Below the pieces are notes generated by a model. It worked only from the letters and a program-made list of their open reading frames with translations, was not told where the DNA came from and made no database searches. Below, one piece after another: positions 38,629 to 45,574 of a stretch of 64,000 nt of DNA. Each line of letters starts with the position of its first letter. Position 1 is the stretch's first letter. Origin of the DNA: Vulcanimicrobiota bacterium (lineage in GTDB: Bacteria; Vulcanimicrobiota; Vulcanimicrobiia; Vulcanimicrobiales; Vulcanimicrobiaceae); assembly GCA_003135555.1 (NCBI GenBank), contig PLCF01000014.1, positions 1 to 64,000 of the forward strand, written 5' to 3'. The translations under genes and the position numbers were made by a program.

Positions 38629-40908
38629 TCACCAGGGCGCGGTCAGCCGCAACACGATCCGCCGCGGCGCATTCCATTGCGTCGTGTTGAACCCGTTGTT
38701 GACCTTGATCAGATAGCGGTTGTCGAACAGGTTCTCGAGCGAGAGCGCGTAGCCCAGCCCGTGCGAGGCCCGATCGGCGGCACGCCCCAGCGACGCGTCG
38801 ACGACCCAGTGTGCGGGCAGCCGTCCTTGACCGTTCTCGAACTGCGCCGGGAAGCCCGTGCCGTACTCCGCCTGCAGCGTCGCGAAGGTGCGCAGATCTC
38901 CGCCGAAATGGCGCGTGTAGAACGCGTTGCCGGTCCAGCGGGCGTCGTGATCCTCAGGCTGCAACGTGATGTCGCTCGCGGCGTCGGGCGCGAACAGGAA
39001 CGTACTGCCCGAGACACCGCCCGCTTCGGCACGCTGAAACGTCAGCGAGAGCCCGGCGTCGGCGCGCGCCGACGTGCCGTCCAGGCGCAACTCGATCCCG
39101 CGATCGCGGCCGACCGCGTTGTTGAAGACCGCGAAGAGCGGCGTGTTGGCGAGTTGCGTCGTGTCGAGCACGTTGACCGCGGTGCGGTCGAACGCGTTGA
39201 GGTAGCCGCGCAGCCCCGGTTTGAACGTGTGCGCGAGGCCAACCTCGACATAGGTGTCGCGCTCGGGCTTGAGGTCGTATACCGGCGCGGCCGTCGACGA
39301 GGTCTGCGTGACGACCGCGTCGCGGCGCACGTCCTCCAGCCCCGGCGCGGAGTAGAGCCGGCCGTAGTACGCGTGCAGCACCGTGCCGCGCGCGATCTCG
39401 TCGTTGATCTCGATCCGCGGGCTGAGCTGCGAGCCGCCGACGTACCCCGTGCTGTGGTCGTAGCGCAATCCGGCATTGATCGCGAGCCGCGGCGTCGCGC
39501 TCCACTTGTCCTCGAGGTAGAGGCCGGTCTGCGCCCCGCGCTGCGCGGTCGAGTCGGTGAAATCGGGCGAGCCGGTGATGCGGATCAGCGAGTCCGAGCG
39601 AAAGTTTTCGACTTGCAGATCGAGCCCGGCTTTGAGCGCGTGCCGGCCGCCGGCGTGAAACACCGACGCGCGCAGGCCGGCATACGTCGCCGCGCGGTCT
39701 TCGCGTACGCCGTTCTGCGGCGTAGCCGAACCGTCAGGGTTGACGACGTTGGCCAGCACGTCGTTGGCCAGATCTCCCGCATACACGACGCGGTTCGAGC
39801 GCACCCATGGCACGACGCGCACGTAGCCGTTGCCGTCCTTCGAGGTGTGCGTGTACGAAAGGCTGGCGAAGCGGTCGTACTCGCGCTGCACGTCGTCGGT
39901 CGCGGAGACCGCAACGAACGGCGACTGCGGCGAGAACGTCGTATTGATCGGGATCTGGAACGACGCGTACCCGCTGGAGAAGTCGGCGGCGAGCAAGTCG
40001 CGCTCGCCCAGCGGCAGCGCGATGCGCAGGAACCCGTCGGCGTTCGACGATGCGTCGTGCTGCGCGTCCTTCGAGGGCGCATCGAGCCCGCGGCCGGTGC
40101 GCGCCGTGTTGAGCGCGAGCGAGAACTGCGCCCGCCCCGCGTTGAAGTGCTCGACCAGCCGCGCGTCCGACGAACCGAGCTCGCCGGCGCCGAGCGTCAG
40201 CGCGCCGGCACCCGAGCCGCCCTGCTCGGTTCCGCCGCTGATGACGTTGACGACCGCGCCCTGGCGCGAGCCGCCGAACTCGGCCGGAAATGCGCCGGTG
40301 AATATTTCGACCGCCTGCGCGTTGCGCGGGTCGATCAGTTGCGCGAAGTTCGAGCTGGTCGATTGGGGGAGCGGCGCGCCGTCGAGCTCGTAGCTCAGGC
40401 CGTGGAACCCATGCGCGACCGGCTCGTCGTACGAGAAGCGCACGACGCCGGGGACCTGCTCGACGATCGCGTCGAGGCGGTCGTTGCGCGGCAGCGCGGC
40501 CAAGCGGCGAGCACCGTAGGCGTTCTCGGAGACCGGCGTTCCGCGCACGCCCGTTGCGGTGCCGGCGGTGCGGCCGATCACCTTCGTCGGGGTTAGCGTG
40601 ACGTCGACGATCGCGTCGGTCGCGACGTCGATGCTCGCCAGCGCGACGCCGTCGGCGGTTGTCGCCTGCAACGTGTAGTGGCCGAACGGGACACGGGCGA
40701 AGACGAAGCGCCCGTCGGCGCCGCTCGTTGCGGTCAAAGCGGTTCGGTCGCCGGTCAGCGTGACGACGACGCCGCCGAGGGGACGATGGTCGGCCCGGGC
40801 GAGCGTCCCGCGGACGACGCCGACGACGTCGGCGCGCGCCGGGGCCGCCGAAACGACGGCGACGGATACGCAAGCGAGCGCGGCAACGGCCGCGCGTAGG
40901 GGATGCAT
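38629..40908 (-). CDS. TonB-dependent receptor with N-terminal carboxypeptidase-regulatory-like domain
   Basis: GGAG RBS before ATG 40908, signal peptide, plug motif GAFPAEFGG, GLRYD, ENLFD and C-terminal W. Confidence 0.88.
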   Translation of the reverse strand: MHPLRAAVAALACVSVAVVSAAPARADVVGVVRGTLARADHRPLGGVVVTLTGDRTALTATSGADGRFVFARVPFGHYTLQATTADGVALASIDVATDAIVDVTLTPTKVIGRTAGTATGVRGTPVSENAYGARRLAALPRNDRLDAIVEQVPGVVRFSYDEPVAHGFHGLSYELDGAPLPQSTSSNFAQLIDPRNAQAVEIFTGAFPAEFGGSRQGAVVNVISGGTEQGGSGAGALTLGAGELGSSDARLVEHFNAGRAQFSLALNTARTGRGLDAPSKDAQHDASSNADGFLRIALPLGERDLLAADFSSGYASFQIPINTTFSPQSPFVAVSATDDVQREYDRFASLSYTHTSKDGNGYVRVVPWVRSNRVVYAGDLANDVLANVVNPDGSATPQNGVREDRAATYAGLRASVFHAGGRHALKAGLDLQVENFRSDSLIRITGSPDFTDSTAQRGAQTGLYLEDKWSATPRLAINAGLRYDHSTGYVGGSQLSPRIEINDEIARGTVLHAYYGRLYSAPGLEDVRRDAVVTQTSSTAAPVYDLKPERDTYVEVGLAHTFKPGLRGYLNAFDRTAVNVLDTTQLANTPLFAVFNNAVGRDRGIELRLDGTSARADAGLSLTFQRAEAGGVSGSTFLFAPDAASDITLQPEDHDARWTGNAFYTRHFGGDLRTFATLQAEYGTGFPAQFENGQGRLPAHWVVDASLGRAADRASHGLGYALSLENLFDNRYLIKVNNGFNTTQWNAPRRIVLRLTAPW

Positions 40909-40942
40909 GAAACAGCTCCGGTGGATTCGAGGGCGCTGGGGG

Positions 40943-41628
40943 CTAGCGCACGACCGGAGGGGCCCGTGAGGGCGGCGGCGCGCGAGCCGGGCGCCGGCCG
41001 GAACGAAGAGCGGATCGGCGGTGCCGGCCCAGACCGCGCCGCCGCCGGGCGCCAGCAGGCGCAGGACCGCCGCCAGGACGATCACGAGCCGCTCGGCGAG
41101 GGCGAGCACCGCGCGGGCTGCCCCGGCGAGCGCCAACGCGGTCAGGAGGGCGCCGGCGCCGAGGGCAGCGAGCGCGACCAGCGCCGGAACGCCGGCGAGC
41201 CCGCCGTCGAGCGCGAGGATCGCGGCCAGCGGGGCGGCACCGGCCAGCCCGACGGCCGCGGCGAGCGGCGCGACACGCTGGGCCGCGACCAGCCGCGCGA
41301 GCGCCGTCAAAAGCGCCGGATTGCGCGAGCGGGCCCGCACCAGCCCGAGCACGGCAAGCAAGCAAAGGCCGGCCGCAAGCCCGGCTGCGTAGACGAGGAT
41401 CGGGCAAAGCCCTTCCGCGTCGTCGGGATCGGGCGTGGGCAGGGCCAGGCCGGAGATTCCGCCGGCGAGCGCCGCGTGGGCGTGGCCCAGGACGTGGTGG
41501 TGGCAGACGTGCGCTCCGGCCGCCGCGAGCACGGCGACGCCCAGCGCGGCCGTTCCGGCGACCGCAGCCAGCAGCCCGAGCCCGAGGGACCGCGTCCCTT
41601 TCGTCTGCATCGTCACCAATACGTTCAT
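40943..41628 (-). CDS. His/Cys membrane leader protein with RAPP motif (DUF2946/CruR-like), frameshifted near its 3' end
   Basis: TM helices, HVCHHHVLGHAH and CPIL. LARRRP is followed by SRAPPVVR-stop in the -1 frame; as sequenced it reads through into the receptor. Confidence 0.62.
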
Positions 41629-41697
41629 CGGGTCCCGTTTGGATCATCTCCAGGGAGGGCGGGTCCCGGCCGCCCGCGGGTCGTAGACGGGGCGCTC

Positions 41698-41940
41698 GTG
41701 ATCGATGAAGCGATAGCCGGGCTGCTGCGCCAGACGATGCCCGATGCCGTGGTGCAGGTTCGCGACATGACCGGCACCATGGACCATCTCGAGGTGTTCG
41801 TACGTTCGCGAGCGTTCGCGGGCGTCTCGCTGCTCGACCGGCACCGCATGGTCGAGAAAGCACTGGCCCCCGCTCGCGCCGACGGACGCATCCATGCGCT
41901 CCAGATCCACACCGCTATCCCCGAGGACACCGATGGCTGA
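41698..41940 (+). CDS. BolA family protein
   Basis: DHLEVFVRS.AFAG.SLLDRHRMV and IHALQI motifs; GTG start. Confidence 0.85.
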   Translation: MIDEAIAGLLRQTMPDAVVQVRDMTGTMDHLEVFVRSRAFAGVSLLDRHRMVEKALAPARADGRIHALQIHTAIPEDTDG

Positions 41941-42283
41941 CCTGCAAGACGAGATCAAGCGCGAGATCGACACCAACACGATACTCGTCTACGGCAAAGG
42001 GACAAAGGACGCGCCGCGCTGCGGCTTCACGCTGGAGACGATCCAGTTCTTCAACGCGTTCGGGTACCCGTTCGAAGTCGTCGACGTGCTCGAGAACATG
42101 CCCAAGCGTGAAGCGCTGGCACAACTCACCGATTGGCCGACGCTGCCCAAGGTGTTCATCAAAGGCCAGTTCTACGGCGACACCGACGTGCTCGCGCCGA
42201 TGGCGCGCAGCGGCGAGTTGAGCCGGGTGCTCGAGACCGCGTTCGCCGGGACCGACGTCGAGCCGACGATCCGCCTGAGCTGA
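41933..42283 (+). CDS. grxD: Monothiol glutaredoxin (Grx4-like)
   Basis: KGT..APRCGFT and WPTLPKVFIKG motifs; follows BolA. Confidence 0.82.
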   Translation: MADLQDEIKREIDTNTILVYGKGTKDAPRCGFTLETIQFFNAFGYPFEVVDVLENMPKREALAQLTDWPTLPKVFIKGQFYGDTDVLAPMARSGELSRVLETAFAGTDVEPTIRLS

Positions 42284-42457: not shown

Positions 42458-45400
42458 GTGCGCACTCTCCTTCGTGCAAGCGCGGCCTTCGCTTTTGCGT
42501 ACCTATCGTTCGTCGGACCCGCAAGCGCGGCGACGGAGCCGGTAGTCGCGCAAGCCTCGGCTACTCAAGGCACGCTGAACGGCCGCGTCACCGATCCTCG
42601 CGGGAATCCCGTCGCCGGCGCAGCCGTGTCGGTCACGGGACCCGGTCCTACGTCCACCGCGACGACGGACAACGACGGACGCTTCACGTTCAATCTCCCG
42701 CCGGGTGTTTACACCGTCACCGTCAACCGCGGCGGATTCGAGACGGCCCAGAACGACATCTCGATCGTGGCCGGCACGCGCATCGCGTTGGCCGTCCCGC
42801 TGCAGGAGACGAACCTCTCGAACCTGCGCGTCATCGGACGCGTGAGCACCAACTCACAGCGCGCGCAGCTCAACACATCGGAATCGTCAGTGTCGACGCT
42901 TCCGCCGCTCGAGATCGCGCTGCGGCAGAACAATACCCTTACCGATACCGTCGCAACGCTGCCGGGTGTGGTCGTGCAGCGTACGTTCTCCGCGACGCCG
43001 AACACGAACTTCGTCGTGCGCGGCGCGGGCGCGCAAACCCGCGTCACCATCGACGGCCACCCGGTGAGCTCCGGGATCTTCGGCCAGTGGAACACCAACT
43101 ACGCCACCTCGGGGATCTTCAACGACGTCGAAGTCGTGAAGGGCACCGGCCTCAACGGCGCGCTCGCCGGTGAGTCCGCGGTCGGCACCGTGAACCTGCG
43201 GACGCGGGACTTCACCACCAAGAATTCGTACGGGCTGCAGATCGGCGCCGACAGCTATACCGGCGGCATCTACAACGCGTTCGCCGACGTGAACTTCTTG
43301 AAAGGCAAGGCGAGCCTCATCGTCGCCAAGTCGTTCATCGGGTTCAACGGTCCGTGGAACCTGGCGTTCAACAACCGCTCCGGCAACAACAACCTGTCGT
43401 CGCAGCCGGTCGCGCTCAACCAGCCGCAGAGCTTCATCGGTCTCGATCAGTGGCAGGGAGACTTCTCCAACCGCTACGGCCTCCAGGCCGAGCTCGCCAA
43501 GCTGCGTTACCGGTTCAGCGAGACCACCTCGGTCACGCTGGAATACCTGGGGATGCAGGGCCAGTATCAGCCGCAAGGCGGAGCCTACGGCACGTTCCAG
43601 GGCAACATGACGATGCAGGCATGCCAAACCGGCGCCGCGTTCCAGCCCACGCTCGCGACGTGCACTTCGCAGTCCACGTACACCGCGCCGTACACGTTCA
43701 ACCAAATCGGCAACACCGTGCCCGCGTACCAGTGGTTCCCCAACTCGTTCATCCAGAACAACGAACCGCAGTTCGCGGCCGAGTTCCGCACGGCGATCAA
43801 GAACGACACGATCCTGTTCCGGCCGTACACGCACCTCATCAACCGCTACATCAGCGGCGTGCGCGAGAACGACTACCCGGGCAACGGCGGCGGCTGGTTT
43901 GCCGTCACCAACGTGGCGAACTGCCAAGTGAAGTTCATCACTCCGGGAACGGCGGGTGGACCGGCGACCGGCGCGGCCGGCCCGTGCTTCCCGTCCACGA
44001 CGGGCCCCGCCGGCGCTTCGTACGTCGGCGCCGACCCGACCGGTCGCCAGTTCCTGACCACGCCCAGCGCCCCGGTGTGCAGCGCGGCACCGCCGTTCAC
44101 GTGCTTCACGACGACGACGGGGATCCAAAACGACGGGACGTTCGGGTACGGAACGCCGTTCAGCCAGCCCGAGGTCGACCGGCTCAACGGCTACACGCTG
44201 AGCTGGATCCATCCCGCGGGCAACAACCTCTTCAACTTCAGCGTCGACTACCGTAAGGACTTCGCCCAGTCGCAGAGCAGCGATCAGAGCCAGGCTGCGG
44301 CCGGCTGTCAGTTCGTGATCGGCTCGGTCACGGGCGCCGCCGTCTCGAACTTCCAGCCGGGATGCTCGACGGCCCAGTTCCCGCTCGCGGGATCTCCCTA
44401 CACCCGCTACAACCTCTTACCGCGCTCGGCGATCGGTACGCCGCCGACCGTTTCGCAGTACACCGACTTTGCGCTCACCGGAACGTTCCATCTCGGTGAC
44501 AAGCTGACCCTAGCGATCGGGAACTACCTCGAGCTCTACAAGCTCAACGCGCAGATCGAGAACCCGACCGTTCTGGCCCAATACGCCGCTCTGGGCAACG
44601 CTCAAGCCTCCCCGGTGGCGCTGGTGACCCGGACGCAAAGCTACACCCACTACGACCCGCACATCGGGCTGGAGTATCGCGTCAACCGCGACCTGAGCCT
44701 GCGGGCCAACGGCGGGTCGTCGATCACCCAACCGTGGCCGGGGATCGTCTCCGGGTTCGGTTCGATCACCCTGCCCAACGCGGCGAACGGCGGCAACTAC
44801 ACCAACACCATCCCGAACTTCGCTCTGACGCCCGAGACGACGGTCGCGTACGACCTCGGGTTCGACCAACGGCTGCACGACACCGGGATCCTGTCGTTCG
44901 ACCTCTACGACATCACCATCCACGACGTGTTCCTCTCCAACACGACGAACCTCGGAACGATCGCGAACACCTGCGGTCCGGGCAACGGTGGACCGTTCCC
45001 CAACGCACTGTGCTTGCAGTCGAACAACATCAACGGGCCGATCCAGCGCACCTACGGAGCCGAGCTCGCGGTCACCAAGAATCCCATCAACGGCTGGGGC
45101 TACTACCTCTCCGCGACCCTGGCCCGCACCTACTACGATCAGCTTCCGCTGAGCATCTACTTCGCCAACACCACGAACAACAACGGAAACTTCAACGTCA
45201 GCGGGGCGCAGATCTTCGGCAACCCGTTCTTCAAGTCGTACGCTCAGCTGCTGTACGCGGACCCGCGCGGGACCGTGTTCGAGCTGGGAGCCGACTACGA
45301 AGGTCCCGACAACTCGACGTTCGGCCCGCCGTTCGTCCTGTGGGATGCGGCTGCACGCATCCCGGTCGCGAAGCACCTCAACCTGCAGATCTCGGCCCAG

Positions 45401-45574
45401 AACCTCTTCAACCTCAACACGGGCACGGCGCTCGGACGCAGCCTGGCCAATCAAGGCAACATCGAGCCTACGCTGTACCTCAGCGGCGGGCAGCTGTTGC
45501 CGAGCGGCGGGACGACGAACATCAACGCGCTGCCGCCGCGTACCATCCGCATGTCGCTCAACTTCGCGATGTAG
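42458..45574 (+). CDS. Large TonB-dependent receptor
   Basis: Signal peptide, N-terminal carboxypeptidase-regulatory-like domain, plug (IDGHP, VEVVKG, GTVNLRT), LTPET and QNLFN. Confidence 0.88.
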   Translation: MRTLLRASAAFAFAYLSFVGPASAATEPVVAQASATQGTLNGRVTDPRGNPVAGAAVSVTGPGPTSTATTDNDGRFTFNLPPGVYTVTVNRGGFETAQNDISIVAGTRIALAVPLQETNLSNLRVIGRVSTNSQRAQLNTSESSVSTLPPLEIALRQNNTLTDTVATLPGVVVQRTFSATPNTNFVVRGAGAQTRVTIDGHPVSSGIFGQWNTNYATSGIFNDVEVVKGTGLNGALAGESAVGTVNLRTRDFTTKNSYGLQIGADSYTGGIYNAFADVNFLKGKASLIVAKSFIGFNGPWNLAFNNRSGNNNLSSQPVALNQPQSFIGLDQWQGDFSNRYGLQAELAKLRYRFSETTSVTLEYLGMQGQYQPQGGAYGTFQGNMTMQACQTGAAFQPTLATCTSQSTYTAPYTFNQIGNTVPAYQWFPNSFIQNNEPQFAAEFRTAIKNDTILFRPYTHLINRYISGVRENDYPGNGGGWFAVTNVANCQVKFITPGTAGGPATGAAGPCFPSTTGPAGASYVGADPTGRQFLTTPSAPVCSAAPPFTCFTTTTGIQNDGTFGYGTPFSQPEVDRLNGYTLSWIHPAGNNLFNFSVDYRKDFAQSQSSDQSQAAAGCQFVIGSVTGAAVSNFQPGCSTAQFPLAGSPYTRYNLLPRSAIGTPPTVSQYTDFALTGTFHLGDKLTLAIGNYLELYKLNAQIENPTVLAQYAALGNAQASPVALVTRTQSYTHYDPHIGLEYRVNRDLSLRANGGSSITQPWPGIVSGFGSITLPNAANGGNYTNTIPNFALTPETTVAYDLGFDQRLHDTGILSFDLYDITIHDVFLSNTTNLGTIANTCGPGNGGPFPNALCLQSNNINGPIQRTYGAELAVTKNPINGWGYYLSATLARTYYDQLPLSIYFANTTNNNGNFNVSGAQIFGNPFFKSYAQLLYADPRGTVFELGADYEGPDNSTFGPPFVLWDAAARIPVAKHLNLQISAQNLFNLNTGTALGRSLANQGNIEPTLYLSGGQLLPSGGTTNINALPPRTIRMSLNFAM

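Follow-up and report, generated by a model that had tools for sequence, protein, structure and literature searches.

The question raised by this locus is whether the gene ahead of a TonB-dependent receptor encodes an arrest peptide that controls translation of that receptor. The stretch analysed, hereafter the window, is the 64,000 nt from position 1 of contig PLCF01000014.1 of a Vulcanimicrobiota bacterium (assembly GCA_003135555.1). The element under study is an open reading frame (ORF) on its minus strand with several transmembrane (TM) segments, followed by codons for Arg-Ala-Pro-Pro (RAPP) and then by the receptor gene. A first-pass annotation had proposed that ribosomes stall at RAPP and that the stall opens a hairpin hiding the receptor's Shine-Dalgarno (SD) sequence. 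Metal-sensing arrest leaders, namely CruR and CutF, are a recent discovery and are mainly known from DUF2946 proteins of Proteobacteria. On the basis of the homologous loci compared here, the locus is probably a leader-receptor operon like those of CruR and CutF, with a leader from another family that has no annotation, and arrest at RAPP would unmask the SD.

The sequence elements of the first-pass description (the motifs of the ORF, RAPP, the stop, the receptor ATG, the complementary heptamers and the inner stem) were checked base by base and are all present (Table 1). The ORF opens with an ATG at 41628, and a second in-frame ATG lies at 41610. The latter is more likely to be the leader start, because it aligns with the starts of the homologues (MR..DRAR) and because a related strain has a 1-nt deletion at 41618/9, between both ATGs. 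The translation includes HVCHHHVLGHAH and CPIL. The body of the leader has about four TM helices, with a Cys after TM1, a His-rich loop and the Cys-Pro of CPIL opening TM2. According to the codon-position GC profile its reading frame, designated frame A, is coding down to about 41000. In the restored frame, the leader stop is separated from the receptor ATG (40908-40906) by 34 nt. One copy of the leader family was found in this genome.

Conservation of the RAPP tail in homologous leaders

Homologues of the leader (E≤1e-5) were found in 27 of 44 genomes of its own genus, with 37-73% identity. The same single-protein query gave no homologue in 146 genomes of 77 other genera of the same family-level taxon. 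The same-genus places were numbered L001 to L029, of which L029 repeats L024. RAPP was located at most nine codons from a stop in 27 of the 28 distinct places, the sole exception being L025, where the contig ends inside the leader. Of these 27, 25 have RAPP in the reading frame of the leader body; the two exceptions are the window and L021 from genome G003. The restored reading is correct because the homologues end in frame in RRRPSRAPP before an orthologous receptor; the restored ORF ending in RAPP, as first proposed, also has the extra base it needs in three metagenome runs described below. The possibility that RAPP is an artefact of an alternative frame in GC-rich DNA was ruled out, as the homologues have it in frame.

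Two of these loci deserve a separate remark. The leader homologue of L025 (G009:C112) finishes, where its contig stops, with the translation ...RSEEHTSELQSR, which looks like translated sequencing adapter and is presumably untrimmed adapter in the assembly. In L021 (G003:C6) the leader frame is also open into the receptor, with a shift inside the RRR codons and another in the signal-peptide region of the receptor; the G003 assembly is 65% complete in 10 contigs, and indel errors are possible. The leader frame is open into the receptor only in the window and in G003, and the leaders of G008 and G183 end at in-frame stops.

The consensus tail is PAGVRLARRRPSRAPP, followed by two to four residues and the stop, with eight residues after RAPP in one subclade (L015, L022). 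Two alignments were used, A1 with 22 intact same-genus leaders and A2 with 29 more distant members. RAPP is invariant in both (22/22 in A1, 29/29 in A2) and lies 2-12 residues from the C-terminus throughout, so that the check suggested in the first-pass annotation, conservation of RAPP among leaders upstream of receptor homologues, came out in its favour. Two to four residues follow RAPP in A1 and mostly three to four in A2, which places the motif at the C-terminus as in known RAPP arrest peptides; in the window this applies to the −1 frame only. The RAPP codons vary synonymously, with CGC, CGG or CGA for Arg, GCA, GCT, GCC or GCG for Ala and CCT, CCC, CCA or CCG for Pro.

In the numbering of L016, the invariant positions of A1 include C35, C64-P65, R172, A176, R209, R210 and R214-A215-P216-P217. 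In A2, with a mean column identity of 37%, the sole invariant columns are two Cys, one Pro and RAPP. The distance from Arg172 to RAPP is 42 amino acids in 22/22 sequences of A1 and 40-46 in A2. From Cys-Pro to RAPP it is 146-150 amino acids in 19 of the 22 leaders of A1, 69 in three short forms and 142-152 in A2.

Across the family the leader is a protein of 150-230 amino acids. Its two invariant Cys are 9-48 residues apart in the arrangement C-x-H ... Met- or His-rich ... C-P, and most members have between them a loop that is rich in Met, with repeats of the MPGMxGM type, while in some, among them the subclade of the window, the loop is rich in His. The His cluster, singled out earlier as a feature of the leader, is therefore not a family-wide property: the invariants are the two Cys and the Pro, the loop is mostly Met-rich, and since only some members have a His-rich loop, the cluster is a local variant of a Cys...Met/His...Cys-Pro site. 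An AlphaFold2 (AF2) model of L016 on A1, of moderate confidence, has helices at residues 5-29, 65-89, 93-129 and 136-184 and then a disordered tail, with about 32 residues between the end of the last helix and the P-site Pro. The N-terminal TM or signal segment of RAPP arrest peptides is represented by a basic N-terminus (MR..DRAR) followed by the hydrophobic helix 5-29. The charges (a basic N-terminus, a basic TM2-TM3 loop and an acidic TM3-TM4 loop) suggest that both termini are inside and that the Cys/Met site faces the periplasm. Three short forms (L023, L024 and L026, 149-152 amino acids) are without TM3-TM4 and keep the Cys/Met loop, the 42-amino-acid spacer and RAPP. L023, L024/L029, L026 and L027 are natural short leader forms, useful as minimal versions.

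The gene behind the leader was compared as well. In the same-genus loci it is the orthologous receptor, with a signal peptide ...APARA followed by DVVG.VRGTL. In five of six sister-clade loci an exported protein of 100-104 amino acids (HIHGTIVKID...HHDPFPMMPMAMTM) comes first and then the receptor; the two of these five proteins that were tested both matched the Pfam family CusF_Ec (34.6 and 39 bits, cut-off 27). In the sister-clade locus L033 the receptor directly follows the leader. The next gene is CusF-like in L040 and L041, by sequence alone, and receptor-like in L045; L042-L044 are the same sequences as L031, L035 and L034 and were not counted twice. Like the DUF2946 leaders CruR and CutF, the leader opens an operon that includes copper-related genes or the gene of a TonB-dependent transporter.

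The family is a small one: a profile search of 1.84 billion representative proteins returned 72 at E≤1e-3, of which 36 at E≤1e-10, and the 29 more distant members that were examined all have the same plan. With the A2 profile, the family was found in 25 of 401 sampled genomes of the phylum, belonging to 4 of 116 genera. Within this sample it is confined to one family-level taxon (24 of 296 genomes), with 0 of 104 genomes in 20 other family-level taxa. Six loci from named public records are all from metagenome-assembled genomes of Vulcanimicrobiota/Eremiobacterota.

No Pfam or NCBIfam model, DUF2946 (PF11162) included, matched any of the family members tested. PF11162, with a gathering score of 23.7 bits, had no match in the window ORF (E≤1), in six intact same-genus leaders (E≤10) or in two distant members (E≤0.1). 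A six-frame search of the own genome with this model gave nothing at the locus and one unrelated sub-threshold match on another contig, and 0 of 301 sampled genomes of the phylum exceeded its cut-off. The leaders of A1 and A2 have no conserved CxxC, and neither CxxC nor CxxxC was found about 45 residues before RAPP. The suggestion that this is a variant distinct from the DUF2946 protein CruR agrees with the lack of PF11162 matches in the members tested. In the ESM Atlas the nearest clusters are hypothetical proteins, mostly from Vulcanimicrobiota, with one Actinomycetota cluster at 0.93 and none with a Pfam family, which is taken as a lead only. A literature search found no work joining RAPP, CusF and arrest, and the works on Eremiobacterota, TonB-dependent systems and copper were unrelated by title and abstract. 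The main text of PMC12992588 does not contain ‘Eremiobacter’, and the supplementary files of that paper that were searched (all but file 10) contain neither ‘Eremiobacter’ nor ‘Vulcanimicrobi’.

Pairing of the Pro-Pro codons with the Shine-Dalgarno sequence

The RNA that was folded begins 6 nt ahead of RAPP and ends 9 nt beyond the next start codon. Of 23 distinct loci of the same genus, 17 have a minimum free energy (MFE) fold in which the Ala-Pro-Pro-x codons, or the next two or three codons, are paired with the SD. The same pairing is present in the MFE fold of five of six sister-clade loci and of L040, L041 and L045. All of the intergenic region, which is 34-124 nt long, lies within the helix, as does an inner GC hairpin.

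With the register fixed on the RAPP codons and GGAG, seven positions were scored in 29 loci. Of these 203 cells 161 pair, versus 65-95 when the partner is slid from −4 to +2 as a control. Of the seven pairs, three follow of necessity from CCN CCN facing GGAG. Informative are the wobble base of the first Pro codon, which faces the A of GGAG and is U in 17 of 29 loci, the next pair outward, which is paired in 23 of 29, and two pairs that have changed on both sides (G-C in 8, U-A in 6 and A-U in 1; U-A in 8, C-G in 7 and U-G in 4), changes that mostly split clades, CCG GUC with ACCGGAG versus CCG UCG with UGACGGAG, with L006 (CCG AUC with UCGGAG) in addition. The claim that the Pro-Pro codons pair with the SD of the receptor is thus sustained by a fixed register and by compensatory changes across homologues. 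Cognate duplexes of arrest window and SD are also the more stable ones, with a mean of −14.57 versus −12.70 kcal/mol for non-cognate ones, and 1 in 10,000 permutations was as good.

Codon choice is the strongest single RNA signal. At 17 of 24 loci RAPP has CCU as its first Pro codon, versus 19 of 842 Pro codons (2.3%) in leader bodies and receptors. For the Ala of RAPP, 19 of 24 loci use GCA or GCU versus a background of 162/2577 (6.3%); in some loci GCU is paired with the A that follows GGAGG, GCA is unexplained by the helix, and the window has GCC (40961-40963). The sister clade has no preference for CCU, and its helix extends from the Pro-Pro codons in the opposite direction. A conserved pairing of arrest-site codons with the downstream SD is the arrangement of the secM-secA and cutF-cutO type.

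A putative arrest switch and its alternatives

In the proposed mechanism the leader would be an inner-membrane protein with TM1 oriented N-in, a periplasmic loop bounded by the two Cys, TM2 and an optional TM3-TM4 hairpin. By analogy to CruR, ApdA and ApdP, the ribosome would arrest with Pro-tRNA at RAPP. A ribosome on CCU CCG would leave the SD single-stranded, and the downstream gene would be translated; upon release of the arrest the ribosome would terminate, the helix would re-form and the SD would be masked. Release would be set by sensing of the nascent chain outside the ribosome. The signal is probably copper, most likely bound at the periplasmic Cys/Met site, where it would alter the pulling force that arises as the last TM helix, whose end is about 45 residues ahead of the arrest site, inserts into the membrane, and it may turn the downstream gene on or off. 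Arrest, metal sensing and the direction of control are what we infer from the sequences. As for the arrest peptide opening an SD hairpin that was first put forward, the family comparison speaks for it. In the window itself the motif is out of frame and such a switch would be inoperative, unless the assembly is in error, and the mechanism is one already known from CruR and CutF.

A more far-reaching version of this proposal is unlikely. It takes the family for an independent invention of a co-translational periplasmic Cu(I) sensor, not a descendant of DUF2946, in which the Cys/Met site would gate the insertion force of the last helix. The 42 amino acids from the end of that helix and the roughly 147 amino acids from Cys-Pro to RAPP would act as a fixed ruler, and the stall codons would be the anti-SD. 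The window would then be a natural escape, with two 1-nt deletions giving one in-frame leader-receptor gene from which an internal signal peptide could still release the receptor.

A number of observations weigh against a switch that masks the SD. The prototype CruR works via Rho and not by SD masking. The receptor has no recognisable copper signature, its NCBIfam matches being weak, sub-threshold and limited to heme and siderophore receptors. The AF2 model of L016 has a predicted local distance difference test score of 69 and a predicted template modelling score of 0.39. The SD pairing is not in the MFE fold of L004, L008, L014, L020 and L021 (L012 is ambiguous), nor in that of L033. Because the two-sided changes mostly separate clades, there are few independent covariation events. 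As the sequences are related, the figures from the permutations and from the covariation exaggerate the support. In the window the hairpin (MFE −20.7 kcal/mol) has z = −0.78, with 44 of 200 dinucleotide shuffles folding as well, and it stands out beyond chance only because of the homologue comparison (RAPP, spacing, codon bias and covariation). The covariation check named in the first-pass annotation came out in favour of the pairing, with two pairs changed on both sides; its limits are the few events, the five or six of 23 same-genus folds without the pairing and the z value in the window. For SD pairing, only 9 of 24 loci have the arrest window among the top 5% of leader-ORF windows; GC-rich sequence has many partners to offer.

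The remaining points concern the copy in the window. Here SRAPPVVR-stop is in the −1 frame relative to frame A, because the C-run at 40970-40972 is one base short, and the ORF is therefore open into the receptor. Frame A reads ...RLARRRPHGPLRSCASPQRPRIHRSCF and then MHPL..., and is stop-free into the receptor as an open frame of 999 amino acids (38629..41628). In L016, the closest intact homologue (73% identical), the sequence is cgc cgc cgc ccc tcc CGC GCA CCT CCG, with CCCC before the Ser codon versus CCC in the window. Contigs of four peat-metagenome runs (X1, X3, X4 and X5) were compared over 40700-41700; no RNA run is listed among the sequencing runs that contain the locus. The Logan contig of X1, likely the source sample, has no differences from the window at a depth of 15.5, the short C-run included. 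X3, X4 and X5, from other samples of two other studies, contain a strain that is about 97% identical (29 substitutions over about 890 nt). This strain has one base more behind 40969 (the fourth C), one more behind 40936 (in the spacer) and one less at 41618/9. Since X3, X4 and X5 have the extra base, the C-run deletion is specific to the strain of the window or to its assembly. Together with the spacer difference behind 40936, it sets leader and receptor in one frame. A programmed frameshift in the window was ruled out, as the relatives need no shift and no slippery heptamer is found at the site.

With the arrest motif out of frame, the switch as written cannot work in this genome: it is broken or has given way to read-through into the receptor, unless the missing base is an error of the assembly. 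It is rather likely that this strain has no working switch, the 1-nt deletion having produced a leader-receptor fusion or a pseudogene, with the receptor made by read-through or from its own hairpin-masked SD. The short C-run in both the window and X1 argues for this, as does the second 1-nt difference that brings both genes into a single long frame, although both assemblies are from the same sample, contigs hide minority variants, and there is a one-in-three chance of landing in frame. Such a loss would bear on the condition of this copy, not on what the family is, and it agrees with the SD-masking switch as the best explanation.

The same arrest leader could instead have a transcriptional output, the stalled ribosome blocking Rho or a terminator in the intergenic region and its release ending transcription ahead of the receptor, while the SD helix is secondary. 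CruR, the only characterised leader before a TonB-dependent receptor, works transcriptionally (PMC9426467). The intergenic region is long in many homologues, up to 124 nt, and most homologues have a conserved GC hairpin of 5-9 bp that begins 5-12 nt beyond the stop and whose stems vary (GCGCC, GCGCG, CCGCG, GCCCC, GCGUCC, GCGCU and others). As a classical intrinsic terminator this hairpin was ruled out, since a tail with at least five T in 9 nt is present in 1 of 30 loci only. A terminator consensus scan of 40700-42000 found no site between the leader stop and the receptor start, and its one terminator-like site lies inside the leader ORF. The short intergenic region of the window lies mostly inside the SD helix, and the codon bias and the register-specific covariation point to the SD as well. 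A purely transcriptional output is improbable, but the transcriptional and SD-masking outputs could coexist.

That the leader serves a pathway of copper uptake as an ordinary inner-membrane protein, RAPP having another role and the helix being plain translational coupling with no programmed arrest, would suit its size (220 amino acids and four helices, larger than known leaders), its invariant Cys, Cys-Pro and Arg and its conserved partnership with the receptor and CusF, but is very improbable given that the three forms of 149-152 amino acids dispense with TM3-TM4 and keep loop, spacer and RAPP, that only two Cys, one Pro and RAPP are invariant across clades with the distance to RAPP kept within a few residues, and that RAPP is reported to be avoided in bacterial proteomes and to arrest ribosomes where tested (PMC12992588).

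Some further observations bear on the RNA of the locus. In the promoter scan of 40700-42000 no sigma-70-like sites were found, the consensus being uninformative for this phylum. L006, L016, L018, L019 and L028 share an element ...TCACGCGCTAGACGCATCGTAGACG... between the inner hairpin and the SD, with the direct repeat TAGACG-N5-TAGACG. The element is absent from the short spacer of the window. It may be a protein binding site or an extra RNA structure.

Locus features and comparison with known systems

The receptor has the Plug and barrel domains of a TonB-dependent receptor behind a signal peptide. Its Pfam matches are PF00593 (1.1e-22, 82 bits, gathering threshold 27), PF13620 (5.8e-10, 39.8 bits, threshold 32.3) and PF07715 (1.2e-05, 26.2 bits, threshold 23.9); a sequence search of the PDB gave no match at E≤0.001. 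Divergent from the leader, on the plus strand, a monothiol-glutaredoxin-like ORF (..CGFT..) at 41894-42283 was identified by eye from its translation. The tail of a BolA-like ORF, also identified by eye, ends at 41940 (plus strand) and overlaps its start. A second TonB-dependent receptor of 1038 amino acids with a CarboxypepD_reg-like N-terminus is encoded at 42458-45574 (plus strand), with weak NCBIfam matches to SusC/RagA and siderophore receptors far under the cut-offs. No RAPP leader was noticed ahead of this second receptor, for which no dedicated search was made.

Table 1. Features of the leader-receptor locus in the window.
Feature	Position	Strand	Basis or remark
Leader gene body, frame A	40970..41610	−	ORF list, codon-position GC, homologues, alignment A1, AF2 helices
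Short C-run, frameshift point	40970..40972	−	CCC here versus CCCC in relatives; ...RRRP (frame A) / SRAPP... (−1 frame)
RAPP codons CGG GCC CCT CCG, putative arrest motif	40955..40966	−	Read base by base; −1 frame in window
TAG stop, restored leader frame	40943..40945	−	Three codons (VVR) beyond RAPP
Outer helix 5' arm, CUCCGGU (Pro-Pro-Val codons), anti-SD-like	40953..40959	−	Folds; fixed-register pairing, 29 loci
Outer helix 3' arm, ACCGGAG with receptor SD GGAG, 7 nt before ATG	40916..40922	−	Exact complement of 5' arm
Inner hairpin GCGCU-agccccc-AGCGC, overlapping last codon and stop	40933..40949	−	Stem GCGCT 40949-40945 / AGCGC 40937-40933
TonB-dependent receptor	38629..40908	−	Signal peptide MHPLRAAVAALACVSVAVVSAAPARA, then CarboxypepD_reg, Plug, beta-barrel; in frame with leader in window

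The closest comparison is with CruR (Bp2923, DUF2946) of Bordetella pertussis, the leading gene of an operon that also encodes the TonB-dependent transporter BfrG (Roy et al. 2022, PMC9426467). CruR has a CxxC 45 residues before RAPP, and its RAPP is three residues from the C-terminus; expression of bfrG is lost in RAPP mutants of CruR, copper acts via the CxxC, and control is exerted by Rho-dependent termination within an intergenic region of 162 bp (PMC9426467). Arrest of CruR at the Pro-Pro of RAPP was shown by toeprinting and PURE translation (PMC12992588). The present leaders resemble CruR in being the first gene of an operon with a receptor, in an N-terminal export or membrane signal, in a Cys-based site, in a fixed spacing to a C-terminal RAPP and in a high GC content. 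The three residues between RAPP and the stop of CruR are also those of the restored leader frame in the window. RAPP does not set the leader apart from CruR, as the earlier wording may suggest, since CruR itself has a conserved C-terminal RAPP (PMC9426467). Unlike CruR, the family has no PF11162 match and has two separate invariant Cys across a Met- or His-rich loop instead of CxxC. Its putative metal site is 146-150 residues from RAPP versus 45 in CruR, it has two or four TM helices whereas CruR has a signal peptide, and a conserved helix would mask the SD where CruR acts by Rho termination in its 162-bp intergenic region.

For CutF of Rhodobacter capsulatus, also a DUF2946 protein (mBio 2023, PMC9973294), a stem-loop at the ribosome-binding site that is opened by stalling was proposed (bioRxiv 10.1101/2025.02.05.636593). 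A C-terminal Pro-rich putative stall motif, a stem-loop that would shield the ribosome-binding site, a predicted sensor facing the periplasm during co-translational export and a copper context are shared with it. CutF differs in its CxxxC, its PPP motif, its Sec signal peptide and its control of a multicopper oxidase, whereas the present leaders precede a receptor or a CusF-like gene. Because CruR has a conserved RAPP and CutF a stall-opened stem-loop, the mechanism as such would be an established one.

RAPP-type leaders have been surveyed more widely in PMC12992588, where RAPP/RGPP ORFs are reported as enriched upstream of genes for TonB-dependent receptors, YcnI, PCu(A)C and PepSY. A signal sequence, and not TM segments, is what almost all upstream ORFs ahead of TonB receptors contain according to that paper, which also describes Streptomyces proteins with four TM helices, RAPP and predicted copper sites that arrest in vitro. 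The RAPP/RGPP small proteins of Streptomyces lividans, encoded ahead of metal-related genes, such as SLIV_18480 (EMBO J 2025, PMC12992588), are like the present family in their four predicted TM helices, a predicted His/Met/Cys copper site and a C-terminal RAPP-type motif; compared by description only, they differ in phylum and in downstream genes. SecM, ApdA and ApdP resemble the leader in that RAPP or RAGP comes shortly ahead of the stop, by a few residues, and in their N-terminal localisation signal; that the stalled ribosome exposes a downstream SD, as it does with them, is what is proposed for the leader (PMC10951233, PMC7897499). They monitor Sec or YidC and control Sec components, whereas the present leader has a conserved Cys/Met site and precedes a receptor or copper-binding gene.

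The link with CusF is a lead that an uncharacterised class of CarboxypepD_reg-type TonB receptors handles copper. The family also provides natural experiments, in the form of two-TM and four-TM leaders with a common tail, a strict spacer length, anti-SD stall codons with strong bias and one frameshifted strain. The logic would be the same as that of CruR and CutF, arrived at with a multi-spanning membrane protein in an uncultured peat phylum (Eremiobacterota/Vulcanimicrobiota).

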